A stretch of DNA of 64,000 nt from an uncultured Actinomycetota bacterium (GCA_963820045.1 CAWFYN010000007.1:21832-85831); one strand, 5' to 3'. Shown: positions 27,894 through 61,620, counted from the first letter of the stretch. Notes: generated from the letters alone by a model not told the origin. Program-made: numbers and translations.

Positions 27894-27912
27894 TACGGTA
27901 AGAGATACCGGA
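27894..27912. promoter_or_regulatory. 19-bp TACTGTAA-N3-TTACAGTA family site 1
   Basis: TACGGTAA-GAG-ATACCGGA, 12/16 arm matches. Confidence 0.55.
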
Positions 27913-27937
27913 GTTCCGTCGGTATTGCTGCTCACCG

Positions 27938-28909
27938 CTACACGGCGAACACACGGCGCAGCGAACGCGCGTGCAGGGCCCGGTTCTCCTGCGAAACAAC
28001 CCACTCGGGAACCAACGAGTCGAACCCGTTGAATGCCGCTGCGATGACGTGCAATTCGGTGTGCACGTAGGCGTGCAGCAGCCTGTTCGCGTAGTCGATG
28101 GCCTCATCGCGGCACGGATCGATCTCCGCGCAGCTGATGAACGTGGGCGGCAGGCCCTCGAGGTTCGCCCGGTGTGCGGGGACGTGTTGACCGCTGGCGC
28201 TCGCGTGCCCGAGGTAATGACCCCACGCCCGGCTCACCGCCGGCCCGTTGAGACCCGGCGTGCGCTGGAACTCACGCCTTGACTGGGTGGCGTCGGAGTC
28301 GAGCATCGGCTGGTGCAGGATCTGCACCAGGATCGGCGGACCTTCGTCGTCGAACATGCGCTGACTCAGGCCCGCAACCAGCGCCGCACCGGCGTCGCGC
28401 CCCATCACCGCGATGCGGTTGACATCCACGTTCAGCTCGGCGCAATTCCGGATGGCGTGATAGAAGCCCGCCTCGACGTCGTCCAACGCCGCGGGGCACG
28501 GATGTTCCGGCGCGAGCCGGTAGTCGACCGATATCAGCAGGCAACCGCCCGCTCTGGCCAGCTCCACGCATTGCGCGTGATCGGTGTCCAGGTTCCCGGT
28601 CACGAAGCCACCGCCGTGGGCATACAGGACAAGTGGTGAGGCCGACTCCGCTCGATCAAGGTCGGGACCCCGGTACAAACGGAGGTTCAGCTGGTGGCCG
28701 CCCGGGCCGGCGATGGTGCGCGTTTCGATGCCCACATCGGCGGTGTCGACTGCCGCGGCGCGCTCGGCGGCAAGCCGGTTGGCGTGTTCCCGCTCGACGG
28801 GCAGTGTCTCGGTGCGGAATTCGACGACGCCCAGTGCGGTGGCAGCCTCCCGGAGCACCGGGTCGATCCGGGTAAGGCCCTGCGGCCGCGTCAGATTCGT
28901 TTGTGTCAT
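27938..28909 (-). CDS. HSL-family alpha/beta hydrolase-fold protein with non-canonical catalytic residues
   Basis: HGGGF, SVDYRLAPEHP; nucleophile elbow GRDAG instead of GxSxG; AFNGF instead of xFHGF. Confidence 0.88.
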   Translation of the reverse strand: MTQTNLTRPQGLTRIDPVLREAATALGVVEFRTETLPVEREHANRLAAERAAAVDTADVGIETRTIAGPGGHQLNLRLYRGPDLDRAESASPLVLYAHGGGFVTGNLDTDHAQCVELARAGGCLLISVDYRLAPEHPCPAALDDVEAGFYHAIRNCAELNVDVNRIAVMGRDAGAALVAGLSQRMFDDEGPPILVQILHQPMLDSDATQSRREFQRTPGLNGPAVSRAWGHYLGHASASGQHVPAHRANLEGLPPTFISCAEIDPCRDEAIDYANRLLHAYVHTELHVIAAAFNGFDSLVPEWVVSQENRALHARSLRRVFAV

Positions 28910-28931
28910 ACCCTCTCATCTTCCGGGCTCA

Positions 28932-29063
28932 TCATGCGGGCTCGTCCCGTTCCGGCGTGGGGCCGTGCCGGAAACCCTCTTCAACGTAGACCTGCGATTC
29001 CGCCTGGTAAAAGATGAGGTGCTTCTCGCTTCGGCTTGGCGGCCAGATGGGCCGCCGGCTCAG
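28932..29063 (-). CDS. Candidate 43-aa sORF, or frameshifted C-terminal tail of 29060-30208
   Basis: CTGA overlap with upstream stop; coding-like GC3 bias: SRRPIWPPSRSEKHLIFYQAESQVYVEEGFRHGPTPERDEPA. Confidence 0.3.
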   Translation of the reverse strand: MSRRPIWPPSRSEKHLIFYQAESQVYVEEGFRHGPTPERDEPA

Positions 29064-30208
29064 CGTTCTCCGGGAAGCGCCTTGACCGTCGCCGGTAGCC
29101 CGTAGAGAGCCATCGCGTTGCCGCGCATGATCCGTTCCCGCTGATCGGCGGGGAACCGGTTGATCGCGTAGGTGGGCGAGTCGTAGCTCCAGTGCGGGTA
29201 GTCCGTCGAGAACATCAGGTTGTCGCCGAGGTCCATCATCTCCAGGTACTCGCGGAACTGCACGGTGTCGGCGTCTTCCAGCGGCTGGGTGGTGAACCGA
29301 ACATGTTCGCGCACATACTCCGACGGGCGCCGCCGCACGTGCGGCAGGTCGCCGCGGCGGGCTTCCCAGATGCGGTCCATCCGCGACATCACCGGCATCG
29401 CCCACGTAAAGCCGCCTTCGACGAATACCACCCGGAGGTTGGGGTGGCGGTCGAAAGCGCCGTCGAACACCAGGCTCATCAGGTGCGAGACGTACAGCAG
29501 CGGCCAGGAGGCGAAGAAGTCGTGCCAGTGCCCGGGGTTGCCGACCGGGTACAACGGAATCAGCTCGAACGGCGTCTGCCCCATCAGGTGCGTGGCCACC
29601 GGGAAACCATTGCGCGCCGCGGCTTCATACAGCGGGTCGAAATGTGGGTTGCCGAAGGGAATTCCACGAGTCTGCGGTGTCATCAGCACTTGGGCCATGT
29701 ACGGATGTCCCGCCCACCGTTCCACCTCGCCTGCCGCCTGCTCGGGCGTCTGCGCGCTGACGCTGATCGATCCGCGCCAGCGGCCGTGCGCGTTGTTCTC
29801 ATCGAGCCAGACGTCGGCCAGCCAGTCGTTGTAGGCGGACTTGAGAATGTGTTCGGCCTGTGGCAGCTGGGCGTCACACATCGGCTCCAGCGTCGCGATG
29901 CTCACGCCGGCATCGAGCAGCAGCTGCTTGGCGGCGAACTCCGGGTCGCTGCCCGCGAATCCCCCACCCGGCGGGGCGGCGTCCATGCGCAGCGACATGG
30001 TCTTGTACGAATCCGGTGTGTCGTAAAAATGCGGCACCGGGGTCACCGCGTTGCCGGTCGGCCATATCTTGTCCACCCATTCCGGCGCCGCATACGACTT
30101 CAGCACGTCGGTCGAGACCGGCAACGGGTGCACGTCGGTGTCGACGATGGTGACCGCTATTTCGTCGTCGTGGCCGGTCGGCGAATCGACCCGTTCGATC
30201 GTGGTCAT
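29060..30208 (-). CDS. Amidohydrolase_2-fold protein with intact metal motifs (AibH2-like dinuclear oxygenase candidate)
   Basis: ATGA overlap; DTDVH, ATHL, FVEGG, STDYPHWSYD. Confidence 0.85.
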   Translation of the reverse strand: MTTIERVDSPTGHDDEIAVTIVDTDVHPLPVSTDVLKSYAAPEWVDKIWPTGNAVTPVPHFYDTPDSYKTMSLRMDAAPPGGGFAGSDPEFAAKQLLLDAGVSIATLEPMCDAQLPQAEHILKSAYNDWLADVWLDENNAHGRWRGSISVSAQTPEQAAGEVERWAGHPYMAQVLMTPQTRGIPFGNPHFDPLYEAAARNGFPVATHLMGQTPFELIPLYPVGNPGHWHDFFASWPLLYVSHLMSLVFDGAFDRHPNLRVVFVEGGFTWAMPVMSRMDRIWEARRGDLPHVRRRPSEYVREHVRFTTQPLEDADTVQFREYLEMMDLGDNLMFSTDYPHWSYDSPTYAINRFPADQRERIMRGNAMALYGLPATVKALPGER

Positions 30209-31251
30209 GCGACACGCTCCTTCAGTCCGTAGAGCTCGCTGGCGTTTCGCCATAACACCTTGTCGCGTTGCCCGGCGTCGAGGCCCTCGGCGACGCTCGC
30301 CGGCGGCGAGGTGGACCAATGGGGGTACGCCGACCCGTACATCAGCAGGTCGGACTTGTCGGTGAACGCCATCCATCGCTGCGTGTCCCCGGGGTCGGTC
30401 GGTCCGTCGAACGCCGACGAGCAGAACCTGACATGACCGGGCAGGTATTCGCTCGGGTAGCGATCGACCCACGGCGTCTGGTCACGCATCGACACCCAGA
30501 AGGTGTCCAGCCGCCAGATCAGCGGGGTGAGGATGTCGTAGCCGCCGTCGGCGAAGACGAACTTCAGGCCGGGGTGCCTGCCGAACATGCCCTCGACGAT
30601 GAGGGTGGCCAGGTGCACGAAGTAGTTCAGCGGCATGAACGCCGCGTATCCCGGATAGGTGTGGGCGTGCCCGGCGAAGGTGGGCGGATAGTCGACGCCA
30701 TTGCCACCGTTGATGTGCACCGCCACCGGCAGGCCGTGGGCGGCTGCGGCCTCCCAGATCGGCTCGAACATCGGTTTGCCGTAGGGCTCGCGGGACTGCA
30801 TAGGGACGCCGACCTGCACCAGCTTCGGGTGATCGGCCAGGCGCTCGATCTCCGCGACGGCACCCTTGGGGTCTTCGGGATTCACGCGGATGGTGCCCCG
30901 GAATCGGTCGGTGGTGTCGGGCTCGAGCCAGCGGTCGAGCAGCCAGTCGTTGACTGCGGCGCAGATCCTGCTGTTGAGCAGGTAGTCGGCGATATTGCCG
31001 CGCGTCAGCGGGTTGAGGATGGCGTAGTCGACACCCTGCGAGGACAGATATCGGCCGACGGTCTGCGGGTCGGACCCCGGGTAGTGGTCCCCGTAGAGGT
31101 CTTGGCGGTAGTCACCGCCGGGTGCGGAGTACCACTGCTGTTCGACGTCGGGAATCGATCGCAACTTGTGGGCGGCGGGCAAATAGCGCCGTATCTCCGC
31201 GTTGGAACGGAAATGCGGCTGCACGTTGGCATCGATCATCGATGGACTCAT
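30205..31251 (-). CDS. Amidohydrolase_2-fold protein with degenerate metal motifs (AibH1-like partner candidate)
   Basis: ATGA overlap; DANVQPH, FADGG, GSAYPHW. Confidence 0.85.
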   Translation of the reverse strand: MSPSMIDANVQPHFRSNAEIRRYLPAAHKLRSIPDVEQQWYSAPGGDYRQDLYGDHYPGSDPQTVGRYLSSQGVDYAILNPLTRGNIADYLLNSRICAAVNDWLLDRWLEPDTTDRFRGTIRVNPEDPKGAVAEIERLADHPKLVQVGVPMQSREPYGKPMFEPIWEAAAAHGLPVAVHINGGNGVDYPPTFAGHAHTYPGYAAFMPLNYFVHLATLIVEGMFGRHPGLKFVFADGGYDILTPLIWRLDTFWVSMRDQTPWVDRYPSEYLPGHVRFCSSAFDGPTDPGDTQRWMAFTDKSDLLMYGSAYPHWSTSPPASVAEGLDAGQRDKVLWRNASELYGLKERVA

Positions 31252-31613
31252 GCCCTCACATACACCTCCCCGTCGGTGACGTCGACCTGGTAGGTGCGGA
31301 TACGCCGCGTCGGATCGGCGACGTTTTGCCCGGTGGTGATGTCGAATTCCCAATTATGCCAAGGGCATCGGACGATTTGGCCGTCGCGGACACGCCGCAT
31401 CCGATCGGGTTCGTCCGGGGCGAACTCGTTGGTGCCACCGATCAAGCCGAGACACAGCGGGGCGCCCTCGTGCGAGCAATAGTTCACGATCGCGTAGAGC
31501 TCGCCGCGCACGTTGTACACGCCGATACCGAACTTCCCGACGTCGACGAGCTTCATCCCGCCGGGCGGCAGATCGTCCAGGGAGCACACAAAACGCCGCT
31601 GGGGCACTTGCAT
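31248..31613 (-). CDS. Rieske-type [2Fe-2S] ferredoxin
   Basis: NYCSHEGAPL..VRCPWHNWEFD; GAGG RBS before ATG 31613. Confidence 0.92.
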   Translation of the reverse strand: MQVPQRRFVCSLDDLPPGGMKLVDVGKFGIGVYNVRGELYAIVNYCSHEGAPLCLGLIGGTNEFAPDEPDRMRRVRDGQIVRCPWHNWEFDITTGQNVADPTRRIRTYQVDVTDGEVYVRA

Positions 31614-31660: not shown

Positions 31661-31687
31661 ACCACGACAAGCCCGTTGGGCTTAGTT

Positions 31688-31707
31688 GCTATCTATACTA
31701 TGATAGC
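31688..31707. promoter_or_regulatory. Palindrome GCTATC-N8-GATAGC enclosing TATACT (-10-like) upstream of P450
   Basis: gctatctatactatgatagc. Confidence 0.4.
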
Positions 31708-31757: not shown

Positions 31758-32984
31758 ATGACGCTCAGCACCGACCCGGCTAACCAGCCCGTCACACTCG
31801 ACCTCACCGGCGACACGAGTCCCTACCCGTTCTTCGAATACATGAGGCGCGCGGACCCGGTTTGGCACGGCGCCCTTTCGGACCACTCACAGATGCCGGA
31901 GGAATTGCGACCCAGCGACGAGTGGGTGTTGTTCGGCTACGACGGCGTTTTCCAGGCGTTCCGGGACGACCGAATCTTCACCTCGGCCGCCTACGACAAG
32001 ACGATCGGTTTGGTGATGGGCCACACCATCCTGGCGATGGGCGGTAGGGAGCATCACGATCACCGCAACCTGGTGGCCAAGGCCTTTCGCGCCACCGCGC
32101 TGGAACGCTGGGAGCCCTCGGTCATCGGGCCGGTCTGCGATCAGCTGATCGACGAGATCAAATACGACGGCCACGCCGACCTGGTCAAGGCGCTGACGTT
32201 CGAGTTTCCCACCCGAATCATCTCCGCACTGCTCGGTCTGCCCCCGGAGGACCTGGACCTCTTCCGGCGACTGTCGCTGGGTCTGATCTCGATTCAGACC
32301 GATATCGCGGCGGGGCTGACGGCGGCGGCGGAGTTGCAGGGGTACTTCCTCGAACAGGTCGAGCAGCGCCGGCGCAGACACACCGACGACATCATCGGCG
32401 ACCTGGTGGCCGCCGAGATCGACGGCGAGAAACTCTCCGATGAGGCCATCATCGCGTTCCTGCGCCTGCTCCTGCCCGCCGGCCTCGAGACCACCTACCG
32501 GTCGTCGGGTAACCTGCTGTACCTGCTGCTCACGCACCCCGAGCAGCTCGCGCTCGTTTACCAGGACCGGTCGCTGATACCGATGGCGATCGAAGAGGGC
32601 CTGCGCTACGAGACGCCGCTGACGATGGTCATGCGGACCACGACCGAGGAGGTCGAAATAGGCGGCAAGACAATCCCGTCCGACGCGCAGATCGACATGT
32701 GCATGGGCTCGGCCAACCGCGACGAGAGCCGGTGGACCGACCCCAACACCTTCGACATTCGCCGCCCGCGGCAAGCGCACATCGCGTTCGCCGGCGGTAT
32801 CCACATGTGTCTCGGCATGCATCTGGCCCGGCTCGAAACGCGGGTCATGCTGAACAGCCTGTTCGACCGCGTCAGGGATTTGGCCTTCGTGGCCGACGAC
32901 GGAACCGGCCAGGAGTCCAAGATCGTCGGGCTTACCTTCCGTTCCCCCAACAAGCTTCCGGTCACATTCGCCCCGGCCCGATGA
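31758..32984 (+). CDS. Cytochrome P450 (paralog of 46496-47704)
   Basis: AGLETT, EGLR, FAGGIHMCLG. Confidence 0.95.
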   Translation: MTLSTDPANQPVTLDLTGDTSPYPFFEYMRRADPVWHGALSDHSQMPEELRPSDEWVLFGYDGVFQAFRDDRIFTSAAYDKTIGLVMGHTILAMGGREHHDHRNLVAKAFRATALERWEPSVIGPVCDQLIDEIKYDGHADLVKALTFEFPTRIISALLGLPPEDLDLFRRLSLGLISIQTDIAAGLTAAAELQGYFLEQVEQRRRRHTDDIIGDLVAAEIDGEKLSDEAIIAFLRLLLPAGLETTYRSSGNLLYLLLTHPEQLALVYQDRSLIPMAIEEGLRYETPLTMVMRTTTEEVEIGGKTIPSDAQIDMCMGSANRDESRWTDPNTFDIRRPRQAHIAFAGGIHMCLGMHLARLETRVMLNSLFDRVRDLAFVADDGTGQESKIVGLTFRSPNKLPVTFAPAR

Positions 32985-34138
32985 GAAGCCGAGCGGCGCT
33001 CCTTCATGACGTCGGCGGGCCCTGGTCCGTCGAGGAATTCGAGCTCGACCCGCCCCGCGCCGGCGAAGTCCTGGTCGAGATGGCGGCGGCCGGGCTGTGC
33101 CACTCCGACGACCACATCCTCAAAGGCGACATGTCGGCACCCAACGAGGTGATGCGGTCCCTCGGCCTGCCGACCATGTTCCCGACGATCGGAGGCCACG
33201 AGGGCTCTGGGATCGTGCGGCAAGTCGGCGATGGCGTAACGGATTTCGCCCCCGGCGACCACGTGGTGATGTCGTTCGTCGCGGTGTGTGGACAGTGCCG
33301 ATGGTGCGCGACCGGCATGGAATACATTTGTGACGTCGGCGCTTTCACCCTCACGCCGGGGATGCCCACCGACGGCACCTTTCGTCATCACACCGCGGAC
33401 GGCCGCCCGCTGGGGCATTTAGCGAAGGTCGGGGCGTTCGCCGAACACACTGTGGTCTCGACGAATTCACTGGTGAAGATCGAGCCGCACCTGCCGTTGG
33501 CGCCGAGCGCGCTGCTGTCGTGCGCCATTCCGACCGGCTACGGCTCGGCCGCCAATCGCGCCGGCGTGCGCGGCGGCGACACCGTCGTCGTCGTCGGCGC
33601 GGGCGGAATCGGGACGGGCGCGATCCAGGGCGCCCGGATCAGCGGCGCCGCACAGATCGTCGCGGTGGACCCGGTGGACTTCAAGCAGAAATCGGCGCTG
33701 CAGTTCGGCGCGACCCACAGCGCCGCCACGATCGCCGAGGCGCAGGACATCGTGCGGGACTTGACATACGGCGTCATGGCCGACGCAGTGGTGGTCTCGC
33801 CTTCACTGATCACCCCCGACGACGTTCGCGACGCGCTGACGCTGACCCGCAAGGGCGGGACGTGTGTGCTCACCGGCATGACCTCGCAACTGACCCGATC
33901 GGTGAAGATCGACCTGCAGGAGTTCATCCTGATGAACAAGACCCTGGCCGGAACCATCTTCGGCTCGTGCAACCCGAGGGCGGACATCACCCGGCTGGCC
34001 AGGCTCTATCAAACCGGGCAGCTGCAGCTCGACGAGATGATCACCCGGCGTTATCGCCTCGACGAGATCAACGACGCCTACGACGACCTCCGCAACGGCA
34101 AAATCATTCGCGGCATCATCGATTTCGGGATCAGCTGA
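32981..34138 (+). CDS. Zn-dependent alcohol dehydrogenase (NDMA-dependent/Rxyl_3153-like)
   Basis: ATGA overlap; GLCHSD, GGHEG, CGQCRWC, GAGGIG. Confidence 0.88.
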   Translation: MRSRAALLHDVGGPWSVEEFELDPPRAGEVLVEMAAAGLCHSDDHILKGDMSAPNEVMRSLGLPTMFPTIGGHEGSGIVRQVGDGVTDFAPGDHVVMSFVAVCGQCRWCATGMEYICDVGAFTLTPGMPTDGTFRHHTADGRPLGHLAKVGAFAEHTVVSTNSLVKIEPHLPLAPSALLSCAIPTGYGSAANRAGVRGGDTVVVVGAGGIGTGAIQGARISGAAQIVAVDPVDFKQKSALQFGATHSAATIAEAQDIVRDLTYGVMADAVVVSPSLITPDDVRDALTLTRKGGTCVLTGMTSQLTRSVKIDLQEFILMNKTLAGTIFGSCNPRADITRLARLYQTGQLQLDEMITRRYRLDEINDAYDDLRNGKIIRGIIDFGIS

Positions 34139-34883
34139 GGCCGCTTCGACCCATCACCCGCTGCAGTTGGCCGTACGCGTCGATGGGGCTGTGCAGCGCC
34201 AGGCCGCCGTCGGCGTGCACGACTTGGCCCGTCACCCAAGGCAATTCGAGGACCCCCACGATCGCCCCGGCCACGTCGACCGCGTTCCCTAGACCGCCCA
34301 GCGCCGTCCGCTCGGACAAGGCCTCGACCCAGCCGGGGAGTTGTTCCGGTTTCGCCAGCATCGGCGTGCGCGTCACGCCCGGCCCGACGGCGTTCACCCG
34401 GATACCGTGCACGCCCCACTCCGCCGCGGCGACCTTCACCAACATGTCCACCCCCGCCTTCGACACGCAGTAAGCACCCATGTCCCGGTCGGCGAGGGTG
34501 CCGCTGATGCTGGAGACCGCAACGATCGAGCCGCCCACCCCGGCGTCGACCATGGCCTGCGCTCCGGCACGAATCGTCAGCCAGGTGCCCGTCAGGTTGA
34601 CTGCCAATACCCGGTTCCACTCCGCGGGTGATTGTTCGAGCAACAGGCCCGAGGCGCCGACCCCGGCGCAGGTGACGATCCTGGTGGGCGCGCCGTGGTC
34701 GCGCACGGTTTGCGCCATCGCGGTCGCCACCGCGTCGGGATCACTGACGTCGCAAGCGATGTCGCCGGCCGAGAGGTCCCACACCACGACGTGGTGCCCC
34801 GCGTCGCGCAGTCGTGCGGCGACTTCGCGCCCGATGCCGGACGCGGCTCCGGTCACCAGGGCCGGGTGGTGATCACCTCGCAT
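34131..34883 (-). CDS. Short-chain dehydrogenase/reductase
   Basis: TGAASGIG, YCVSK, VTGQVVHADGG. Confidence 0.9.
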   Translation of the reverse strand: MRGDHHPALVTGAASGIGREVAARLRDAGHHVVVWDLSAGDIACDVSDPDAVATAMAQTVRDHGAPTRIVTCAGVGASGLLLEQSPAEWNRVLAVNLTGTWLTIRAGAQAMVDAGVGGSIVAVSSISGTLADRDMGAYCVSKAGVDMLVKVAAAEWGVHGIRVNAVGPGVTRTPMLAKPEQLPGWVEALSERTALGGLGNAVDVAGAIVGVLELPWVTGQVVHADGGLALHSPIDAYGQLQRVMGRSGLS

Positions 34884-34935
34884 GAGATGTGAGTTTAGCC
34901 CGGCTCAACCGCGTCACCGGCACGCTCGGGTGCCG

Positions 34936-35757: not shown

Positions 35758-35833
35758 TGCCTAGACCTCCGCGGGAGCGTAACGGTCGCGATCGTCGCAC
35801 ACGGTCGATAAGCGGGTCGCTCAACCCGGGCCG

Positions 35834-44700: not shown

Positions 44701-44728
44701 AAGCAGCTCCCGGTACGCGAAAGGTCTA

Positions 44729-46425: not shown

Positions 46426-46444
46426 TACTGTAAGAATTACAGTA
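46426..46444. promoter_or_regulatory. 19-bp family site 5 (perfect palindrome)
   Basis: TACTGTAA-GAA-TTACAGTA. Confidence 0.8.
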
Positions 46445-47704: not shown

Positions 47705-47713
47705 GGTCCGGAA

Positions 47714-48940: not shown

Positions 48941-49068
48941 ATCGCGCCGGCGACGATGCAGTGGGGGTACCGCCCGCTTGTGGGGGACGGAGCGATGAGG
49001 TGGGGGCACGCCCCCACAAGTGGGAGGTACCCCACCCGCTTGCGGGGGAGAGCGGCGCTCATGAATGA
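48937..49068 (+). repeat. MIRU-type interspersed element with internal hairpin and 43-codon coupling ORF
   Basis: GTGA..CGCGCCGGCGACGATGCA..AGCGATGAGGTGGGGGCA..CCCGCTTGCGGGGGAGAGCGGCGCTCATGA; 48961-48986 pairs with 49011-49035. Confidence 0.8.
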
Positions 49069-54312: not shown

Positions 54313-54326
54313 GATGTCGCCCCTTC

Positions 54327-55382
54327 CTACGCCGGCTGCGCCGCGGCCTCGCGGGCGGCCACGATCTCGGCGACCCGTTGGGCCGTGGCGCCCGGATCGC
54401 CGCCGGCCAATGGCCACCCCCGGGCGCGCACCAGATACGCTGTCGCCGCGGCTTCGGCCGAAACCCCCAGTCCGCCTTGGATGTGGACCGCCATCGTCGC
54501 CGCCCTGGAGGCCTCCTCGGCCATGAAAACGAATGCGGAGGGCGCCAATTCGGGTCGTTCGTCGGGTTCGTTGTCCAGGAACCAGGCGGCGCGTCGAGCC
54601 AGATTACGTCCACCTTGGACGGTGATCACCATATTCGCCAGGGGATGCGAGATCGCCTGCAGCGTGGAGATGGGCACGCCCAGCGTGTAGCGGGTCTTCG
54701 CGAATTCGGCCGCGATGGTCATGGTCTCCTCCACCAGTCCGACGAGTGCCGCCGCGGTCAACAGCCGCCATTCGTCCAGCGCCAGCCGGTAGATCGCCAG
54801 CGCATCGGGTCCTTCTGCGACGACCGTGCGAGTGTCGGCCGCGGCCGGATCCACCCAGGCCATCGGCAGCCGGCCGATGTTGTCGACCTTCGCCGGGCGG
54901 GTCGCGAAGGTCAGCCGCACGACTTGGTCACCATCGCGGACGACGATGTGGTCGGCGATCGACCCCGAGGGAATCAGCCGCGGGCCGCGCCCGGCGTCGA
55001 TTCGCGGGTCGAGCGCGGCCAGCTGTTCTCCACCGGCCACCCCGGCGCCCTCGCCCAGCGCGCCGAGGCGCCCCAGCAGCCGTGCGGTGCAGACGTGATC
55101 GATCCACGGGACCGGGGCCAGGGACCGGCCGATCTCCTCGGCCACCAGGGTGAGATCGACCAGGGTCGCGCCGTCACCGCCGCATTCTTCCGGCAGGGCC
55201 ATCGTGGTCGCGCCCATCCCGCACAACCGCTCCCAGAGGTTTTTATCGAAGCCGGATGGCTCTGCGGCGCGGACTGTTTCGATCGAGCAGTGGGTCTTGA
55301 AGAACTGCTTGTAGGCATCCTGCAGGGCCACATGGTCGTCGGACAGGCTGTAGTCCAGTCTGCGTAGCTCGAAGCGGTCCAT
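54327..55382 (-). CDS. Acyl-CoA dehydrogenase, beta-type subunit
   Basis: RYTLGVPISTLQAISHPLA, HIQGGLG. Confidence 0.9.
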   Translation of the reverse strand: MDRFELRRLDYSLSDDHVALQDAYKQFFKTHCSIETVRAAEPSGFDKNLWERLCGMGATTMALPEECGGDGATLVDLTLVAEEIGRSLAPVPWIDHVCTARLLGRLGALGEGAGVAGGEQLAALDPRIDAGRGPRLIPSGSIADHIVVRDGDQVVRLTFATRPAKVDNIGRLPMAWVDPAAADTRTVVAEGPDALAIYRLALDEWRLLTAAALVGLVEETMTIAAEFAKTRYTLGVPISTLQAISHPLANMVITVQGGRNLARRAAWFLDNEPDERPELAPSAFVFMAEEASRAATMAVHIQGGLGVSAEAAATAYLVRARGWPLAGGDPGATAQRVAEIVAAREAAAQPA

Positions 55383-55384
55383 CG

Positions 55385-56215
55385 TTACTCGTCCTTCCCG
55401 AAGAAGAAGTCTCGCGCGTTGTTGTAGAGGTAGTTATCCAGCACCTCGGCCGGCAGATCAAGAGCGCGCGCTTCGGGTATGACCCGACGCATGGGCAACA
55501 CCGGCCAATCCGACGCGTAGATCACCTTGTCGGGACCACGTGTGCGCATGTAGTGCAGCAGGCTCTCCGGCAGTCGCTTGGGCGACCACGCCGAGGTCAT
55601 GAGCCGCAGGTTGGCGTACTTCAGCAGCAAGCGGATCGCGACGTCCCACCACGGGTCGGCGCCGTGAATCATGCACAGCCGCAGTTCGGGAAAACGCACG
55701 CACACCCGGTCCAGGTGCATCGGGTGCTGCACCTCGCCGGGTATGGGTGGTCCCGGAATACCGGTGTTGACACACAGCGGAAGGTTCAGTTCTGCGCACT
55801 TGGCGTAGAGCGGGTAGTACACCGCGTCGCTGGGCGGGTACTGGCCGTCGCCCCAAAAGCTTGGGCCCACTACCGCATACGCGACGGGCAGCTCGCCCGC
55901 GACGGCGGTCAACTCGCGCAGCGACCGCACCGGGCGCAGCAGGTTGACCCCGCCCATGGCCAACGCGAACCGATCCGGCCTGGCTTCGACGAATTTGCGC
56001 GCGGTCGTGGATGGGTTGGCAAGCGAGTCCATCAGGATCGCCTTCTGCACACCCTGTTCGTCCATCTCGGCGAGCAATTCGGAGAGGTCGACCGGGGCGA
56101 ACATCGACTCGGGGCCCTTGAAGTAATCGTCCCTGACCTTGAGCATCCACGTCGGCTGAGATTCCGCTTCCCCGAAATGGACGTTCACCAGGCAGTCAAT
56201 CGCTTTGGTGTTCAT
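55385..56215 (-). CDS. Amidohydrolase_2 family protein
   Basis: YPLYAKCAELNLP, FPELRLCMIHG, YASDWP. Confidence 0.85.
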   Translation of the reverse strand: MNTKAIDCLVNVHFGEAESQPTWMLKVRDDYFKGPESMFAPVDLSELLAEMDEQGVQKAILMDSLANPSTTARKFVEARPDRFALAMGGVNLLRPVRSLRELTAVAGELPVAYAVVGPSFWGDGQYPPSDAVYYPLYAKCAELNLPLCVNTGIPGPPIPGEVQHPMHLDRVCVRFPELRLCMIHGADPWWDVAIRLLLKYANLRLMTSAWSPKRLPESLLHYMRTRGPDKVIYASDWPVLPMRRVIPEARALDLPAEVLDNYLYNNARDFFFGKDE

Positions 56216-57863
56216 GACTTCCTTCGGGGTCGGACGGGACCAGCGCGATCACCGGAACGTGTTGAGTGGCTTGCTCTCTGGCCCAACGGTAATTGGGCTT
56301 GCCGTTGCCCAGCCGTTCGATCTGCTCGACGAAGATAACGGCTTTGGGCGCCTTGAAATGCGCCAGTTGCGCCGTGCACGCTCCGTAGAGGGCTTCCTGG
56401 GTGAGGTGGGCATCGGGGTGCGTCGCGACGAGCGCGACGACCTCTTGCCCCCACCGCTCGCTTGGTCGCCCTACGACAAGGGCGTCGATGACGCCCGGCT
56501 GCGCGCGCAGCACTTCCTCGACCTCTTCGACGAAAACCTTTTCGCCACCTGTGTTCACGACCAGCGAATCGCGGCCCAGCAGGCGGATGGTGCCGTCGGT
56601 CTCGAGCGATGCCCGGTCGCCGGGTATCACCACCCGCTGTCCGTCGATCTCCGGGAAGGTTCGCTGGGTGGCCTCGGCGTCACCGAAGTAGCCGAGCGGA
56701 ATCCGGCCCGTCCGGGCGGCCCAGCCGACCTCCTGCTCGCCGGGCCGCAGGAACCGACTCCGGTCGGCCGACACGACGGTGGCCCCGTCCCTGGGCTGGA
56801 AGGTTTCGCTGGCGTTGCCCTCCCGGCTGTGACCGAACGCCATGTTGCCGCTCTCGGAAGAACCGTAACCCTCGATGATGGTGATGTGGGGCAGGCATTC
56901 CATCAGTGCGCGTTTGTGTTTCGCGTTCGTCGCGGCCCCTCCGGTGCCGATCGCCTGCAGCGAGGACAGGTCATAGGAACGCGCACGCAGCTCGGCGATC
57001 AGCGGCCCGGCGTACGCGTCGCCCACCATGGTCATCATGCCCACCCTCTCGCGCTCGGCGGTTTCCCACACCGACCGTACGTCCAGCTTGTTGCGGTCGT
57101 CGTAGAGCACCACCGGTAGGCCGGCGCAGAGCGCGGCGAAGGCGGTCCACATGCCGGCCGCGTGCATGAGCGGGGAGACGGCAAACCACGGCTGGCCTCC
57201 CCCGGCGACCTTGTCGTGGATCTCGGTGACGCTGGCATGGTCGGCGCCCACCATTGACGACACGTACATGTCGCTCTGTCGCCACAGCACGCCCTTCGGG
57301 CGTCCCGTCGTTCCGCCGGTGCACATCATGATCAGGTCATCCGGGGACCCCGCGTCCTCGCGGTCGGGGCCGGCCGCCGCCAGAACGTCATCGAGTGAGA
57401 CCGCTTTTGGCAGTTGGGGAACCGTACTGCCGTCGTCGATCGATATCAGCAACTCGGTGCCAGTCGGTGGCAACACGTCGGCGAACCGGGCGCCGAGCGA
57501 GCGGTGATAGATGATCCCCCGGGGGCGGACGTAGTCGAGCAGGTCGCGGATTTCACGGGGCGAGTAGTGGTGATTCACGTTGACCGGGACGGTGCGCGCC
57601 TTGAGACATCCGATCACCATGTCGGGGTACAGGTCGTTGTACATGAGGAGCGCGATGCGGTCCTGGCCGCACTCCCAGCGCTGCAGCCCGTCACGCGCCG
57701 CGTAGACGCCGAAACCCTTGCCGGCGAGGTAGTTCGCCAGTCGGTCGGTGCGCCGCGCGGATTCGGCAAACGTGCTCTTGCGGTCTCCGCACACGGTCAT
57801 CAGGCGGTCGGGCACGACGTCCGCAATGGCGTCGAGAACGGCGCCCACAGTCCATTCACCCAT
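56196..57863 (-). CDS. Acyl-CoA synthetase (FadD19-like)
   Basis: TGGTTGRPKG, GYGSSE, PGDRA, GGEKVFVEEVE. Confidence 0.93.
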   Translation of the reverse strand: MGEWTVGAVLDAIADVVPDRLMTVCGDRKSTFAESARRTDRLANYLAGKGFGVYAARDGLQRWECGQDRIALLMYNDLYPDMVIGCLKARTVPVNVNHHYSPREIRDLLDYVRPRGIIYHRSLGARFADVLPPTGTELLISIDDGSTVPQLPKAVSLDDVLAAAGPDREDAGSPDDLIMMCTGGTTGRPKGVLWRQSDMYVSSMVGADHASVTEIHDKVAGGGQPWFAVSPLMHAAGMWTAFAALCAGLPVVLYDDRNKLDVRSVWETAERERVGMMTMVGDAYAGPLIAELRARSYDLSSLQAIGTGGAATNAKHKRALMECLPHITIIEGYGSSESGNMAFGHSREGNASETFQPRDGATVVSADRSRFLRPGEQEVGWAARTGRIPLGYFGDAEATQRTFPEIDGQRVVIPGDRASLETDGTIRLLGRDSLVVNTGGEKVFVEEVEEVLRAQPGVIDALVVGRPSERWGQEVVALVATHPDAHLTQEALYGACTAQLAHFKAPKAVIFVEQIERLGNGKPNYRWAREQATQHVPVIALVPSDPEGSHEHQSD

Positions 57864-57874
57864 GGCGCGAGCGG

Positions 57875-59077
57875 CTAGACTGCCGACGGGACCGGAACGC
57901 CGAGCAAGTCGAGGGCGTTGTCGCGCATCACTTTTCGGACGTCGGACTCCCCGAAACCATTGAGTTCCTCGGCGAACGACAGTGGCGACTCTAGGCCTTC
58001 ACCGTGCGGCCAGTCGGAACCGAACAGGATCTTGTCGATGCCGATGGCATCGGCCAGCTCGGGCAGATCATCCTCGTAGTAGGGAGCGATCCACACGTTG
58101 TTTCGCAACTGCTCCACCGGGTCTTCGGGAAAATACCGCGGGTAATTGTTGGCCACCTTCTTCAGCCGCTTGATCAGCCGGTGCACGAAGTACGAGCCGT
58201 TTTCGATGCTGACCGCCCTGAGTTTCGGGTGGCGGGTGAACACGCCGTGCACGATCATCGAGGCCATCGTGTCGTGGATGGCTCGGTCGTCGAGCAGAAC
58301 CTGATCCAGTGGGTCCTTTTCGCCGAAGCCCTCGAAGGTCGCCTTGCCGCCCCACTGCCCCGCGATGTGCAAATAACCACTGTCGCTGAGGTGGAAGCCG
58401 ACCGGTACGCCCGCCTCGGCCAGCCGGGCCCACACCGGGTCGTGGCTGGGGTCGCCCAGCGACCTCGGCTTGACCACCCCGGGCACCGGTGCCGGCCGTA
58501 CCAGCACCAGCTTGGCGCCGCGGGCCAACACGAACTCGACCTCTTCGAGCGCCTTAGCCGGGTCCGCCAGCGAGATGATCGGCGCGGCAATGATTCGGTG
58601 ATCGGGCCGGTCGAAGCCCCAATCCTCGTCGAGCCATAGATTGAATGCGTGCAGCGACGCCATCGTCGCATCGATGTCGTGCTTGAGCGCCTCCTCGACG
58701 CCGCACGCGAAAGTCGGCAGCATGAACACCGTTTCGATGTCCTGAGTGTCCATCACCGCGATCCGTGCATCGCGGTTCTGGTACTCGGGATGGCTGGCCA
58801 GTCGCTCGACCTTCATCAGCGAGGCCGGGTCGACGCCCTCGGGGATCTCGCCCCGGAACAACAAGTCGAGGCAGCCCGGCACGATGATCGGGTCGAAGGT
58901 CGGGTTGGGGATGAAGTGGTTGACCCGGTCCCCGATCACGGCCCAGGTGCGCTTGCCGTCGCTGAGCATCTGCACGCCGCGGCGCTTGAACTTCTTGTCC
59001 AGGTGACGGGTGAAGGCGTCCAGCGGCTCGTAGTAGTGGTTGTCGACGTCAATCGCCTGGTAACCCAAATTGGCCAT
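57875..59077 (-). CDS. Amidohydrolase_2-fold protein (paralog of 21108-22316)
   Basis: DVDNH, FHLS, IENG, GSDWPHGEG. Confidence 0.88.
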   Translation of the reverse strand: MANLGYQAIDVDNHYYEPLDAFTRHLDKKFKRRGVQMLSDGKRTWAVIGDRVNHFIPNPTFDPIIVPGCLDLLFRGEIPEGVDPASLMKVERLASHPEYQNRDARIAVMDTQDIETVFMLPTFACGVEEALKHDIDATMASLHAFNLWLDEDWGFDRPDHRIIAAPIISLADPAKALEEVEFVLARGAKLVLVRPAPVPGVVKPRSLGDPSHDPVWARLAEAGVPVGFHLSDSGYLHIAGQWGGKATFEGFGEKDPLDQVLLDDRAIHDTMASMIVHGVFTRHPKLRAVSIENGSYFVHRLIKRLKKVANNYPRYFPEDPVEQLRNNVWIAPYYEDDLPELADAIGIDKILFGSDWPHGEGLESPLSFAEELNGFGESDVRKVMRDNALDLLGVPVPSAV

Positions 59078-59107
59078 GATCATCCTTTCCGGCATCACCG
59101 GCGAACA

Positions 59108-59950
59108 CTAAGCGTCGGTCGAGTTGAGCGAGGGAAACTTCGGCGGTCGCTTCTCGAGGAAGCTGGTGATGCCTTCGATGACGTCCGGCCGCGGCATGGC
59201 CTCGTGCAGCAAGACCTCGGCCCGCGACGTGGCGTCCACGACATCGCGAGTGGCGTCACCGTATACCTGCCTCTTGATCACTTCCATGGAAGCCGGCGAA
59301 CAATTGCGAGCGATGTCCTCCGCGTAGTCCAGCGCACGCTCCATGAGTTCCTCGGGCGCGACCACTTCCTTGACGAGGCCGAGATCGGCCGCCTCTTCGG
59401 CGAGGAAGGTGCGGCCACTCAGCAGCAGATCCAGGGCGACGCCCCATGTGGTGAGGCGCGGCAGTATCCAGGAGATGCCGAACTCGGCGATCAGTCCGCG
59501 GCGCGCGAAGACCGCGGCGAACTTGGCGCCGGCGGCCGCGAACCGGACGTCGCACATGAGCGCCTGGGTCAGGCCGATACCAACACAGGCGCCGTTGATG
59601 GCCGCAATGACGGGCTTGCGCAGCGTCGTTACGAAATGCGGCGGGCGTTCCCCGACCAAGTCGGCGAGGTTCGTCTGACTCGCCTTCTCCATCGTCTCGT
59701 CCAAGGTTGGTGCGGAACTCGGCGCGCCCAGATACGCGCCGGCGCAAAAACCCTTGCCCCGGCCGGTCAGCACGATCACGCGGACGGCGGGGTCGCCTTC
59801 GGCGCGGTCGATCGCGGAGTAGAGCCCCGCGGCGATGTCCGGCCCCCAGGCGTTGAGGCGATCGGGCCGGTTGAAGGTCAGAATCGCGACGCCGCTGCCG
59901 GTGGCCTGATAGAGCACCGCGTCTGCGGAAGCGCCGTCGCTGCCGGACAT
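59108..59950 (-). CDS. Enoyl-CoA hydratase/isomerase
   Basis: FNRPDRLNA, GKGFCAG, AAINGACVGIG, CDVRF. Confidence 0.92.
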   Translation of the reverse strand: MSGSDGASADAVLYQATGSGVAILTFNRPDRLNAWGPDIAAGLYSAIDRAEGDPAVRVIVLTGRGKGFCAGAYLGAPSSAPTLDETMEKASQTNLADLVGERPPHFVTTLRKPVIAAINGACVGIGLTQALMCDVRFAAAGAKFAAVFARRGLIAEFGISWILPRLTTWGVALDLLLSGRTFLAEEAADLGLVKEVVAPEELMERALDYAEDIARNCSPASMEVIKRQVYGDATRDVVDATSRAEVLLHEAMPRPDVIEGITSFLEKRPPKFPSLNSTDA

Positions 59951-60022: not shown

Positions 60023-60173
60023 CCGTTCTCCACAACCGCCGCCAGGCGCCCGCGAACCCCGGCCGAACAGCGGATATCGGCTTACTGAACGGCACCTTTG
60101 ACCACGGCGAGACGGCGGATCGTCCCGCCGACTCCCGGCATCCGGAGTGTGGCGAGCGCCACGTCCCGATCAC

Positions 60174-60200
60174 GTTTTCTCCGACCGCCAAACAGGGAAA
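60174..60200 (+). promoter_or_regulatory. SigF/SigB-type promoter GTTT-N17-GGGAAA
   Basis: 37 nt upstream of the csbD-like ATG. Confidence 0.5.
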
Positions 60201-60237
60201 GCCAACACAGATACCCACTACCAGGGAGGGGAGACGC

Positions 60238-60474
60238 ATGGTTGACGAAAAGAGCGGCCCGATCGAGTTGATCCAGGGCATCGTGGAGGCTGTCTTCGGC
60301 AAGGCCAAGGAAATCGTCGGTACGATCATCGGCCGCAACGATCTGGTCAACGAAGGCCAGGCTCAGCAGGACAAGGCTGACGCGCAGCGCAGCGCGGCCA
60401 AGAAGGAAGCCGCGGCCGACAAGGCCCGGGGCAAGGCCAAGGCGGCGGAGGCACGCGAAAAGGCCGAACAGTAG
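60238..60474 (+). CDS. csbD: CsbD-like stress protein
   Basis: GGAGG RBS; GKAKEIVGTIIGRNDLVNEGQAQQDKA. Confidence 0.85.
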   Translation: MVDEKSGPIELIQGIVEAVFGKAKEIVGTIIGRNDLVNEGQAQQDKADAQRSAAKKEAAADKARGKAKAAEAREKAEQ

Positions 60475-60481
60475 ACGGCTG

Positions 60482-60520
60482 GCGAGCGGCCCGGTCACCG
60501 TCGGTGGCCGGGCCGCTTGC
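60482..60520. terminator. GC-rich hairpin between convergent csbD and DHDPS-like genes
   Basis: GCGAGCGGCCCGGTCACC-gtc-GGTGGCCGGGCCGCTTGC, 18-bp stem with G-U pairs. Confidence 0.7.
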
Positions 60521-60558
60521 TTATGGGTTGAGTTGTGGCGCAGGCGTTTTGGTGGACG

Positions 60559-61566
60559 CTACGTCCCGATGAGCCCGAGGCGGCGGTAGGCCTGCGCGAT
60601 CTGCGACTTGGCCTCCGGCGGCAACTTCGCTTGCGGAGGCCGGGAATGCGGATAAGCGCCTATCGGCAACCCCAGTAGCGAGGCAGCGTACTTGAACGCC
60701 CCACCCCAGTGAGTGAAGTAGTCCGGCCGCCCCGGGTAGCAGGTCCACCAGGATCCGACGTCGAGGTCGAACTGGTCCAGGCCCGACTCACGGCCGAAGT
60801 CCATGGCCTCGAGCAGCTTGTCATTTTGCACCAAATCCCAATACTGGGAGAACAATCGCCGCTGCGGCGTCTCGAACAGGTAGCCCGCGGTGCCCAGTTG
60901 CGCCGGGCAGACGATCCCGTCGCGCAGCCATCCCGCGCGGTACACCGTCTTGTCGCATTCCCAGAGCACCAGGCCGGGCGCCAGCTGGTGCAGCAACCGG
61001 CTGCTCGCCGGCCGGAACGCGCCCTCCTTGGTGGCGCACACCGCGGGCACCTCGTCGTAGATCCGTGCGCTTTCGGCCGCAGTCAGCACGTAGCCGGACG
61101 ACGGCGAGTTGAACATGCCCAGTGCGATGTCGGTGCGGGCAGCGATGTAAGAGAAGAATCGCAGCACACCCTCGCCGCCGTGCACCTCCATCATCGGGGT
61201 CTGGATGTAGACGATGTCGGCGCCGGCCCCCTGGGCGTGCAGCGTCAAGTCCAGACAGTCCTTCGCACTGATGGCCGCCGTGCAGGCTTGCACGATGACG
61301 TCGGGGTTGGCGGCACGGCCCTCTTCGATCGCCACCTCCAGCAAGCGTTTTCGCTCGTCGAGGGTCAACGACCAGAATTCGGAGAGGCCGCTGGTGCACC
61401 ACAACATCGGGTGTCCGAGGTCTCCGACGCAGTAGCGGACCAGCGTCCGGTATGCCTCCCAGTCGATGTCGTCGCCGTCCGGGCCGCAGAACGGGGTGTA
61501 GAGGGAATCGCCGATTCCCCGCAATGCGCCACGCGCCCAGGCGCGTGCCTCGCTTGCCGTCGCCAC
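60559..61566 (-). CDS. DapA/DHDPS-like class I aldolase family protein
   Basis: GTG 61566; LYTPF, SEFWSLTLDERKRL, GADIV, ATKEG. Confidence 0.82.
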   Translation of the reverse strand: MATASEARAWARGALRGIGDSLYTPFCGPDGDDIDWEAYRTLVRYCVGDLGHPMLWCTSGLSEFWSLTLDERKRLLEVAIEEGRAANPDVIVQACTAAISAKDCLDLTLHAQGAGADIVYIQTPMMEVHGGEGVLRFFSYIAARTDIALGMFNSPSSGYVLTAAESARIYDEVPAVCATKEGAFRPASSRLLHQLAPGLVLWECDKTVYRAGWLRDGIVCPAQLGTAGYLFETPQRRLFSQYWDLVQNDKLLEAMDFGRESGLDQFDLDVGSWWTCYPGRPDYFTHWGGAFKYAASLLGLPIGAYPHSRPPQAKLPPEAKSQIAQAYRRLGLIGT

Positions 61567-61601
61567 AGTCTTCGCCCGTCCAGCTTCGTTACCAAAAAGC
61601 C

Positions 61602-61620
61602 TACGATAGGCGTTACAGTA
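61602..61620. promoter_or_regulatory. 19-bp family site 7, between divergent DHDPS-like gene and tetR
   Basis: TACGATAG-GCG-TTACAGTA, right arm perfect. Confidence 0.65.

Follow-up and report, generated by a model that had tools for sequence, protein, structure and literature searches.

A 19-bp palindrome stands before nearly every operon of a ~46-kb catabolic island in a slow-growing Mycobacterium and is a genuine, conserved switch site. Judged from sequence, this dyad is probably the operator of a TetR repressor encoded at 61752–62546, which would repress both the units of the island and its own gene. No published description of this regulator–box switch was found in the literature. All positions are those of the window, i.e., the whole 64,000-nucleotide stretch of DNA that was analyzed.

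The box and the genes it heads

The dyad has the consensus TACTGTAA-N3-TTACAGTA and spans 19 bp. Its half-site, TACnGTA, is a small palindrome itself, and the two half-site centers lie 12 bp apart. The original prediction listed seven copies, one of them perfect and six degenerate, and all seven are present at the predicted coordinates, far beyond chance by shuffles, simulations, and a genome scan. Mismatches to TACTGTAANNNTTACAGTA number 0 at 46426, 3 at 31642, 38100, and 61602, and 4 at 27894, 42404, and 60004. The set was nevertheless incomplete, as an eighth box lies just beyond the window. The boxes are as follows.

27894..27912: box 1, TACGGTAAGAGATACCGGA, 50 bp upstream of the ACAD pair (start 27843, minus strand); 16.3 bits
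31642..31660: box 2, TACTGTGCCGGTTACGGTA, in the divergent gap between the Rieske ferredoxin (start 31613, minus strand, 28 bp) and P450 (start 31758, plus strand, 97 bp) genes; 18.5 bits
38100..38118: box 3, TACAGTAAGCAATCCAGTA, in the divergent gap between an F420-type LLM oxidoreductase gene (ATG 38088, minus strand, 11 bp) and, opposite, the carboxyltransferase gene (ATG 38228, plus strand); 22.1 bits
42404..42422: box 4, TACTGTAACGGGCTTAGTA, in the 81-bp divergent gap between the esterase-like (start 42363, minus strand) and KshA-like Rieske oxygenase (GTG 42445, plus strand) genes; 18.1 bits, with an accompanying matrix match shifted 12 bp, at 42392
46426..46444: box 5, the perfect palindrome TACTGTAAGAATTACAGTA, 51 bp upstream of GTG 46496 (plus strand), heading the P450/CoA-transferase/thiolase operon; 33.8 bits, the top-scoring match of the genome
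60004..60022: box 6, TACTGTATACCTATCGGTA, 53 bp upstream of the ATG of a six-gene operon (59950, minus strand); 22.8 bits
61602..61620: box 7, TACGATAGGCGTTACAGTA, in the ~185-bp divergent gap between the DHDPS-like gene (GTG 61566, minus strand, 35 bp) and tetR (~130 bp)
64229 (window-equivalent, 229 bp beyond the window): eighth box, TACTGTATGGGTAACCGTA, heading six further genes, three for enoyl-CoA hydratases and three for acyl-CoA ligases

The transcription units within the window were assigned as follows.

27843 to 25460, minus strand: ACAD pair, one of two units in 25460..31613 (Pfam, refined starts)
31613 to 27938, minus strand: Rieske ferredoxin, two amidohydrolase-fold genes, and alpha/beta hydrolase, codirectional with the ACAD unit (Pfam)
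31758..34138, plus strand: P450 and Zn-alcohol dehydrogenase operon (Pfam)
34131..38088, minus strand: LLM (TIGR03617 F420 class), CYP108/P450terp-like P450, and two SDRs
38228..39724, plus strand: carboxyltransferase (AccD/MmdA-like)
39801..42363, minus strand: operon of esterase-like, SnoaL-like, and LLM (TIGR03857 F420 class) genes
42445..46381, plus strand: operon of KshA-like Rieske oxygenase, isochorismatase-like hydrolase, unknown ORF, and acyl-CoA ligase
46496..50206, plus strand: operon of P450, family III CoA-transferase, and SCP-x/lipid-transfer-type thiolase
53119..59950, minus strand: operon of ECH, amidohydrolase, acyl-CoA ligase, amidohydrolase, and ACAD pair
60082..61566, minus strand: DHDPS/aldolase-family gene and a 138-aa ORF of unknown function, divergent from tetR
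61752..62546, plus strand: TetR-family regulator gene (TetR_N HTH and TetR_C_1), the presumed repressor
62568..64000, minus strand: truncated ECH and small ORFs, toward the eighth box at 64229

This gene set looks like a pathway for the breakdown of terpenoid, alicyclic, or sterol-like acids. As expected from the original prediction, every copy of the box is intergenic and heads an operon, lying 11–53 bp 5' of the nearest start codon once gene starts had been refined, and four (31642, 38100, 42404, and 61602) fall in divergent promoters. The regulon would span about 46 kb, from 25.46 to ~71.4 kb in window-equivalent coordinates, with ~12 transcription units and roughly 40 genes, in place of the ~37 kb first proposed.

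The enrichment of the motif over background was borne out by several counts. In the window, 4 sites have at most 3 mismatches, compared with 0.00 in 100 shuffles, and the whole 5.16-Mb genome holds 8 such matches, 5 of them inside the island. A weight matrix built from 48 sites in ten other species only (cut-off at least 16 bits) gave 17 matches genome-wide, 9 of them within the island, and ranked all seven predicted boxes among the top 16 of the 5.16-Mb genome. The island's intergenic DNA (3,036 bp) contains 8 matches of at least 16 bits; 2000 AT-matched first-order Markov simulations gave 0.0015 on average and never more than 1. A blind count of 3-mer dyads also picked TAC-N13-GTA together with TAC-N1-GTA in exactly the seven box gaps, where shuffles gave 0–2 gaps. 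The SQR cassette showed no box match in the weight-matrix scan, in line with the earlier claim; the companion claim, that no copy lies left of 27 kb, holds apart from one weak, AT-rich 14-bit match at 4346.

These counts bear on whether the similarity could be an artifact of AT-rich promoters or a LexA/SOS-like CTGT...ACAG box. Mycobacterial -10 elements take the form TANNNT, which the half-site TACnGT fits, and CTGT-N7-ACAG, at the core of the dyad, is similar to CTGT-N8-ACAG, the SOS box of E. coli. The full dyad at its fixed 12-bp spacing is, however, nearly confined to the island (9 of 17 genome matches; 8 versus 0.0015 in its intergenic DNA), its two halves are conserved together across species, and the target genes are all catabolic. 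The spacing is also unlike that of the E. coli SOS box, and the mycobacterial LexA box, TCGAAC-N4-GTTCGA, differs in sequence. An artifact or SOS-type origin is therefore hardly credible.

Conservation of the box across relatives

The boxes are under purifying selection at orthologous promoters, and they are promoter-located and island-specific. Syntenic islands of 10–13 other species carry the box at the corresponding promoters, and ten such islands, with 57–98% protein identity, were compared promoter by promoter. The box is retained in the LLM/carboxyltransferase gap in 7 of the 10 (9 relatives when further comparisons are counted), in the esterase/KshA-like gap in 8–9 of the 10, at the P450 promoter of box 5 in 7 of 10, and before tetR in all 10. 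Box 5, aligned in 8 relatives, has invariant half-sites and a variable spacer. The ECH promoter keeps box 6 in 9 of 10 diverged relatives; among the close loci, 71 have a flank long enough to include this promoter, and 70 of these carry the box. More generally, the alignments show half-sites that are fixed and a 3-bp spacer and flanks that vary. Wherever insertions split the operon of the CoA-transferase and thiolase genes, new boxes are found before these genes.

The promoter gap of tetR shows the strongest conservation. All 80 close loci have box 7, whose column conservation is 1.0 versus 0.65–0.73 in the flanks, and a box lies upstream of tetR in most diverged orthologues of the genus (~14 of 18 aligned, 14 of 15 scanned), so that box 7 is presumed to be the autoregulatory operator of tetR and autoregulation, as originally proposed, appears likely. 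A box was also found upstream of a tetR orthologue in a second genus; the tetR orthologues of one other genus (65–70% identical, same HTH) had no box of at least 13 bits within 1.5 kb. Across the 80 close loci (1.53 Mb), 226 of 227 matches of at least 16 bits fall at three conserved promoter positions.

The boxes at 27894 and 31642 are the weakest two, and their conservation among relatives is patchy. Box 1 is kept in two of the genomes compared (G004 and G035) and missing in two others (G026 and G010), in which the ACAD genes abut the upstream operon. Box 2 is kept in G003, G010, and G026 and missing in G004, G035, and G013. A strongly conserved promoter-like palindrome at 31686–31709, before the P450 gene at 31758, is retained even where the TetR box is missing. 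Since this P450 gene has its own conserved element, TetR control is least secure there. This qualifies the proposal of one local TetR regulon, which is otherwise supported by the conservation of the boxes and by the co-occurrence of TetR, island, and box.

The adjacent TetR as the probable repressor

The regulator gene is present in a single copy in the genome and is the sole regulator gene inside the island. A box does precede it as predicted, but its conserved start is more likely GTG 61752 than the preceding in-frame GTG at 61749. The 264-aa protein has a single TetR_N domain (PF00440, E 8.3e-12, above the curated cut-off) and a TetR_C_1 domain (PF02909, E 1.2e-10), its HTH aligns with that of TetR(A/B), and its alignment to TetR class A spans residues 19–228. 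By sequence, it has the attributes of the TFR family: an N-terminal HTH, a C-terminal domain of the ligand-binding and dimerization type, and a palindromic operator in its own promoter gap. The HTH is nearly invariant among orthologues of 65–100% identity, as expected for a fixed operator.

The box also follows the regulator across genomes. Within the genus, the pattern (at most 2 mismatches) was found in 26 of the 29 genomes that carry the TetR and in 1 of the 8 that lack it, and none of 24 genomes from other families had it; the reversed control pattern gives about 0–2 matches per genome. The TetR-negative genomes also lack an orthologue of the island's KshA-like oxygenase, and the co-occurrence of TetR, island, and box taken alone is compatible with another factor traveling with the island. 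In some relatives, a second TetR paralogue (50–58% identical) is found inside the island and could share or split sites there.

We consider it unlikely that the boxes are a real cis-element bound by a different factor while the adjacent TetR recognizes something else. The window does hold two other regulator genes, for a TetR_N-thioesterase fusion (19996–21021) and a GntR protein (1861–2700), which together with a regulator elsewhere would be the candidates. There are also candidate boxes at remote lipid-metabolism genes, one adjoining a gene for a double-HTH Mce3R-like TetR, which makes remote regulon members outside the island plausible. No box, however, lies near the fusion or GntR genes, in every species no box is better conserved than that of the tetR promoter gap, and box presence follows the presence of the adjacent TetR. 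Mce3R-type proteins, moreover, bind asymmetric 25-bp sites and not short palindromes (PMC11667970).

With the adjacent TetR as the probable binding protein, we infer that one homodimer would sit on each box and repress transcription, and that the inducer would be a pathway substrate or CoA-thioester intermediate that binds the C-terminal domain and releases TetR. A dimer bound 11–53 bp upstream of the first start codons would hinder RNA polymerase, and in the four divergent gaps a single box could serve both directions. In this way TetR would hold off ~12 transcription units (~40 genes) and tetR itself. The predicted targets include three P450s, the Rieske-ferredoxin/amidohydrolase module, the KshA-like oxygenase, and two F420-type LLM oxidoreductases, as well as the carboxyltransferase, acyl-CoA ligases, ACAD pairs, hydratases, thiolase, and CoA-transferase.

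A scan for E. coli-type promoters found nothing. At the LLM gene at 38088, which is probably leaderless, the box directly adjoins a hexamer, TAAAGT, that lies 7 nt before the ATG and matches the TANNNT form, and a hexamer of this form is found at the corresponding LLM position in the diverged relatives examined. This arrangement is consistent with a leaderless promoter and an operator lying across it.

The position of this box also bears on the idea that the adjacent TetR binds the boxes but activates, or acts dually, at some promoters, e.g., that of the P450 gene at 31758. Box 31642 sits upstream of the -35-like part of the conserved element of this gene and not on it, and box-to-start distances vary from 11 to ~130 bp, as activation might allow. 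Among characterized TetR-family members whose operators are palindromes in divergent gaps, however, the great majority act as repressors, and the LLM box overlaps the likely -10 region. KstR and KstR2, from the same genus, are also repressors (PMC1995591, PMC3068626). Activation or dual action is accordingly improbable.

Close relatives of the TetR are found in M. marinum (ACC42426.1, 84% identity), M. ulcerans, and M. intracellulare; no orthologue from the M. tuberculosis complex was among the best matches. A broader and distinctly tentative reading is that the TetR–box pair is the master switch of a conserved, unnamed terpenoid/alicyclic/sterol-like pathway, with a regulon beyond the island and the half-site TACnGT doubling as a -10 element. 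The pathway may then be common to many slow growers of the genus, among them M. marinum, M. ulcerans, M. riyadhense, and the M. avium/intracellulare group, and apparently not kept in M. tuberculosis. The regulon may extend to distant genes for hydratase, thiolase, thioesterase, and kinase-like proteins. If it serves on either strand as a -10-type element, the half-site may allow one dimer to shut two divergent promoters at the same time.

The probable repressor switch is of the ordinary TetR kind. Being of a conventional type, it is of value for annotation and as a way in, and not as a new principle. For a catabolic island that is large and widely conserved among mycobacteria, it offers a testable ~40-gene regulon, and the repressor–box pair is a handle for finding the island's substrate. 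The predicted co-regulation helps a joint reading of several unusual enzyme sets: the amidohydrolase-fold/Rieske ferredoxin pairing, the CYP108-type P450, the KshA-like oxygenase, and the F420-type LLMs. The regulator also exists in M. marinum, a species in which genetics is routine.

Comparison with known TetR-type systems

Among solved structures, the nearest are those of true tetracycline repressors, although the similarity is weak (5mru, E 3.5e-15). The island protein shares TetR_C_1 with TetR(A/B/D) and keeps the Y-W pair of the recognition helix. The island box shares its geometry with tetO, a 19-bp dyad of odd length bound by one TetR dimer, and would likewise suit a single dimer. The residues aligned to Arg28 and Gln38, which contact bases in TetR (1QPI complex), are Pro and Val in the island protein, which fits a different half-site sequence. 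It is not a tetracycline-resistance TetR: it scores 75.2 bits on the NF010319 equivalog model against a cut-off of 265, and its neighbors are aldolase-family and hydratase genes with no efflux pump. The island also has many operators at catabolic operons, not one divergent pair.

Mce3R (Rv1963c) of M. tuberculosis is a double-HTH fusion that binds asymmetric 25-bp sites (PMC11667970). The likeness is that of a mycobacterial TetR-type repressor of lipid operons including LLM, ACAD, and ECH genes. The island protein is not of this double type, having a single HTH and a symmetric 19-bp operator. The Mce3R-like double TetR beside one remote candidate box is encoded elsewhere in the genome and not in the island.

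The closest parallels in organization are with KstR (Rv3574) and KstR2 (Rv3557c), which control the cholesterol-catabolism regulons of Mycobacterium and Rhodococcus from short palindromic operators that are intergenic, often divergent, and 20–80 bp from start codons (PMC1995591, PMC3068626). The gene content of the island is unlike theirs, and the operators differ as originally predicted: the 19-bp island box stands against TnnAACnnGTTnnA for KstR and AnCAAGnnCTTGnT for KstR2 (14 bp). A search of the window with the KstR operator gave a single match, which falls within a gene and is no more than chance predicts (24 of 100 shuffles had one or more), and the KstR2 operator gave none. The island TetR is also not an orthologue of either: neither was among the 41 PDB sequences matched at E ≤1e-3, although structures of both have been solved. 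As with KstR and KstR2, a TetR-family repressor gene lies inside a large lipid/ring-catabolic island with its own box, and the regulator–box pair is conserved across mycobacteria. The KstR and KstR2 regulons were defined by the same logic, from a motif in the promoters of orthologous regulators followed by a genome scan.

Boxes and transcription units of the island

The ~46-kb catabolic gene island carries a real, well-conserved predicted TetR regulon. Its presumed operator is a 19-bp palindrome (the box), in which two half-sites flank a 3-bp spacer. The original prediction placed seven palindromes at 27894, 31642, 38100, 42404, 46426, 60004 and 61602, and all are present there (boxes 1–7, with 4, 3, 3, 4, 0, 4 and 3 mismatches to TACTGTAANNNTTACAGTA, respectively). 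When up to three mismatches are allowed, the window (C7:21832-85831) has four matches, compared with none in 100 shuffles. The whole genome (5.16 Mb, 13 contigs) has only eight, five of them inside the island, including one that lies 229 bp past the window end, at window-equivalent position 64229.

A weight matrix built from 48 distinct sites in ten other species, with the studied genome excluded, gives 17 matches of at least 16 bits across the 5.16-Mb genome. Nine are in the island, a tenth, on contig C8, is a paralogous copy, and all seven predicted sites rank within the top 16. For the background check that the original prediction proposed, 3,036 bp of intergenic DNA from the island gave eight matches of at least 16 bits; 2000 Markov simulations matched for composition averaged 0.0015. 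A blind count of 3-mer dyads recovers TAC-N13-GTA together with TAC-N1-GTA in precisely the seven gaps (shuffles, 0–2); exact enumeration of 4-mer dyads missed the motif, owing to the degeneracy of the local copies. The 48-site consensus is T(92%) A(97%) C(99%) T(69%) G(85%) T(76%) A(89%) A(69%), followed by N3 and the mirror image. Matrix matches shifted by 12 bp at 38088, 42392 and 61590 were considered as tandem operators and rejected, as they are mostly explained by one shared strong, self-palindromic half-site.

Genes were mapped by GC3-guided ORF calling with Pfam and NCBIfam searches, and starts were refined afterwards (LLM, ACAD, ECH and SQR are enzyme classes).

Transcription units of the island
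27843 to 25460, minus: ACAD pair
31613 to 27938, minus: Rieske ferredoxin, two amidohydrolase-fold genes, alpha/beta hydrolase
31758 to 34138, plus: P450, Zn-ADH
38088 to 34131, minus: F420-type LLM, CYP108/P450terp-like P450, two SDRs
38228 to 39724, plus: carboxyltransferase
42363 to 39801, minus: esterase-like gene, SnoaL-like gene, second F420-type LLM
42445 to 46381, plus: KshA-like oxygenase, isochorismatase-like gene, unknown ORF, acyl-CoA ligase
46496 to 50206, plus: P450 (P450c), family III CoA-transferase, SCP-x-type thiolase
50207-53118, no box: thioredoxin / CMD / SQR-like cassette
59950 to 53119, minus: ECH, amidohydrolase, ligase, amidohydrolase, ACAD pair
61566 to 60082, minus: DHDPS-family gene, small ORF
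61752 to 62546, plus: TetR gene (tetR)

MSMEG names attached to the LLM family models were rejected as gene identities, being family exemplars only. The box copies are intergenic and upstream of genes, as predicted, each 11–53 bp from the nearest start codon; with refined starts, four lie in divergent gaps, again the predicted number. A box precedes every island transcription unit in the studied genome except the SQR cassette, near which the prediction had noted no copy.

The predicted ~37-kb span holds for its seven boxes and falls short as a complete set, since an eighth box lies at 64229. Downstream of this box runs a plus-strand operon with three genes for hydratases and three for acyl-CoA ligases, which reaches ~71.4 kb; the box probably also serves minus-strand genes running back to 62568. 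The first enoyl-CoA hydratase after it (C7:86122-86928, window-equivalent 64291-65097) is apparently split by a frameshift, with the N-terminal part in one frame and a 146-aa C-terminal part in another. A copy of the hydratase/ligase operon occupies C8:1-7709 (80–86% identical to C7:85.4-93.2 kb, with an identical eighth box), and C9:3109 and C8:20380 are near-identical reverse-complement copies. These C8 and C9 copies reflect either genuine paralogous islands or the presence of a second strain in the assembly.

Further candidate boxes elsewhere in the genome, all in promoter positions, are leads only as regulon members.

Remote candidate boxes
C2:309550: before a hydratase; conserved in relative G003, near the island in relative G031
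C3:442592: AACTGTATGGGTAACAGTT, before an SDR, beside a double-HTH TetR
C4:265765: before a thioesterase
C4:281330: before a thiolase
C9:3109 and C8:20380: before kinase-like genes
C4:151215: before a hydrolase / MDMPI pair

Immediately upstream of AACTGTATGGGTAACAGTT and the SDR gene lies the gene for this regulator, an Mce3R-like double TetR of 432 aa that carries two TetR_N domains (C3:442625-443923, minus). A regulator–enzyme fusion also occurs in the window: a 342-aa ORF at 19996-21021 (plus) joins a TetR_N HTH to a 4HBT hotdog thioesterase domain; the amidohydrolase gene at 21108 follows closely, and no island box lies nearby.

Conservation among relatives

The TetR protein is 83–97% identical in slow-growing Mycobacterium, including M. 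scrofulaceum, M. parascrofulaceum, M. colombiense, M. triplex and M. genavense, and copies 84–90% identical are found in M. marinum, M. ulcerans, M. liflandii, M. intracellulare/paraintracellulare, M. gordonae and M. riyadhense. All carry generic database names, and no M. tuberculosis orthologue appears among the best 80 loci or best 120 proteins. In those best 80 loci (~20 kb each), 226 of the 227 matrix matches of at least 16 bits fall at three fixed places: the tetR promoter gap (80/80 loci), the ECH operon promoter (70 of the 71 loci with a long enough flank) and a promoter ~2.5 kb downstream of tetR (72/77). Column conservation across these loci is 1.0 at the tetR box versus 0.65–0.73 in its flanks. 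Among more diverged genus members (TetR identity 60–96%), conservation in the gap is confined to the box, the ribosome-binding site, the start codon and one other short block. This second block, GCGACACGCCTACGTATGCGCAGGTGA, is found at 61665-61695, past box 7 and ahead of the tetR start; many of the diverged orthologous loci retain it, and it may be a tetR promoter or leader element.

The island is syntenic in ten species sampled over 36–40 kb upstream of tetR (more from three of them), with mapped window proteins 57–98% identical. Boxes are kept ahead of tetR in all ten species, ahead of the ECH operon in nine, at the esterase/KshA gap in eight or nine, and at the LLM/carboxyltransferase gap and ahead of the P450c operon in seven each. 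Where insertions have parted the P450 from its CoA-transferase and thiolase partners (genomes G011, G024, G025, G034), each of these two genes gains its own box. In alignments the half-sites are invariant, the 3-bp spacer varies freely and the flanks drift. Boxes 1 and 2 depart from this pattern: box 1 is present in G004 and G035 and absent from G026 and G010; box 2 is present in G003, G010 and G026 and absent from G004, G035 and G013. In G026 and G004 the thiolase and ACAD operons converge directly, with no SQR cassette between them. On this evidence the cassette is a lineage-specific insertion into the island, which fits its missing box.

Probable pairing of box and regulator

TetR is the sole regulator gene within the island and is single copy in the genome. 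In a sample of 61 genomes, with up to two mismatches allowed, the box pattern occurs in 26 of 29 TetR-positive genus members, in one of eight TetR-negative members (a 61%-complete genome) and in none of 24 genomes of other families; with the pattern reversed as a control, each genome has 0–2 matches. The TetR-negative genomes also have no orthologue of the island's KshA-like gene. Most pattern matches in other genomes lie within ~30 kb of their own tetR.

Orthologues down to 65% identity, from four genera, hardly differ in the HTH region (…LSMPLLGKHLGVGVTSIYWYFRKKDDLLNAMTDRAL…). This is expected if the operator is fixed, and it makes HTH–operator co-variation unusable as evidence. TetR orthologues occur in nine of the family's 34 genera. 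The box upstream of tetR persists in a second genus and has weak versions in a third; in a fourth, no box of at least 13 bits lies within 1.5 kb of tetR, and the conserved upstream block resembles the motif only in part. Many relatives (G024, G018, G190, G325 and others) have a second TetR paralogue, 50–65% identical, in the same island ~15–25 kb from the first, in G024 directly after the P450c gene. The studied genome has one of the pair only.

The protein combines a TetR_N with a TetR_C_1 domain, and its nearest solved structures are true tetracycline repressors, at weak similarity (5mru, E 3.5e-15). It differs from tetracycline-resistance TetR in scoring 75 bits against an NCBI equivalog cut-off of 265 and in having no adjoining pump gene. 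In alignment its recognition helix keeps the Y-W of tetracycline TetR, whereas Pro and Val replace Arg28 and Gln38, which are base contacts in the TetR–tetO complex. By analogy with tetO, the simplest geometry would be one dimer per 19-bp odd-length dyad. The C-terminal tail (62450-62546) is basic and rich in lysine, arginine, alanine and proline (…KGGKAAPRPRKAVKSPASRARAKAPAAR), differs in length among orthologues, and may make non-specific DNA contact.

Predicted repression and known systems

The predicted TetR would repress box-bearing promoters by occluding them, and a pathway metabolite would relieve the repression. Occlusion is inferred from the box positions and the family precedents KstR and KstR2, which belong to the same genus (PMC1995591, PMC3068626). 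A TAAAGT hexamer 7 nt before the ATG of the LLM gene directly adjoins the box, and a TANNNT-form hexamer occupies the corresponding site in the diverged relatives examined; this arrangement points to a leaderless promoter that the predicted operator overlaps. An E. coli-type sigma-70 promoter scan of 27.8–46.6 kb found no promoter. Upstream of the P450 at 31758 is another palindrome, TTGCTATCTATACTATGATAGC (GCTATC-N8-GATAGC; 31686-31709), which is single copy in the genome and sits within a sigma-A-like TTGGGC-N17-TATGAT arrangement. Across G000, G026, G004 and G013 this palindrome is conserved more than the adjoining TetR box, and it may represent either the promoter of this P450 or the operator of another regulator.

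The regulon is apparently without earlier description. Literature searches on the half-site with TetR and Mycobacterium, on CYP108 with M. marinum and TetR, and on MSMEG_2249/2256 and neighbours found no description of the regulator or island; the M. smegmatis neighbours named there, MSMEG_2252 and MSMEG_2254, are unrelated. A survey of mycobacterial TetR motifs covers Rv-numbered regulators only, displayed as logos (PMC4482099). A LexA-type reading of the box was rejected on its spacing, and Mce3R uses asymmetric 25-bp sites unlike it (PMC11667970). Pattern scans also speak against KstR and KstR2 and agree with the original view that the motif differs from their boxes: the window contains a single match to the KstR pattern, within a gene and at chance level, and no match to that of KstR2. 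The island system resembles KstR and KstR2 in its mode of operation and differs from them in both box and protein. This type of regulon is already known, and the pair of box and regulator is apparently new.
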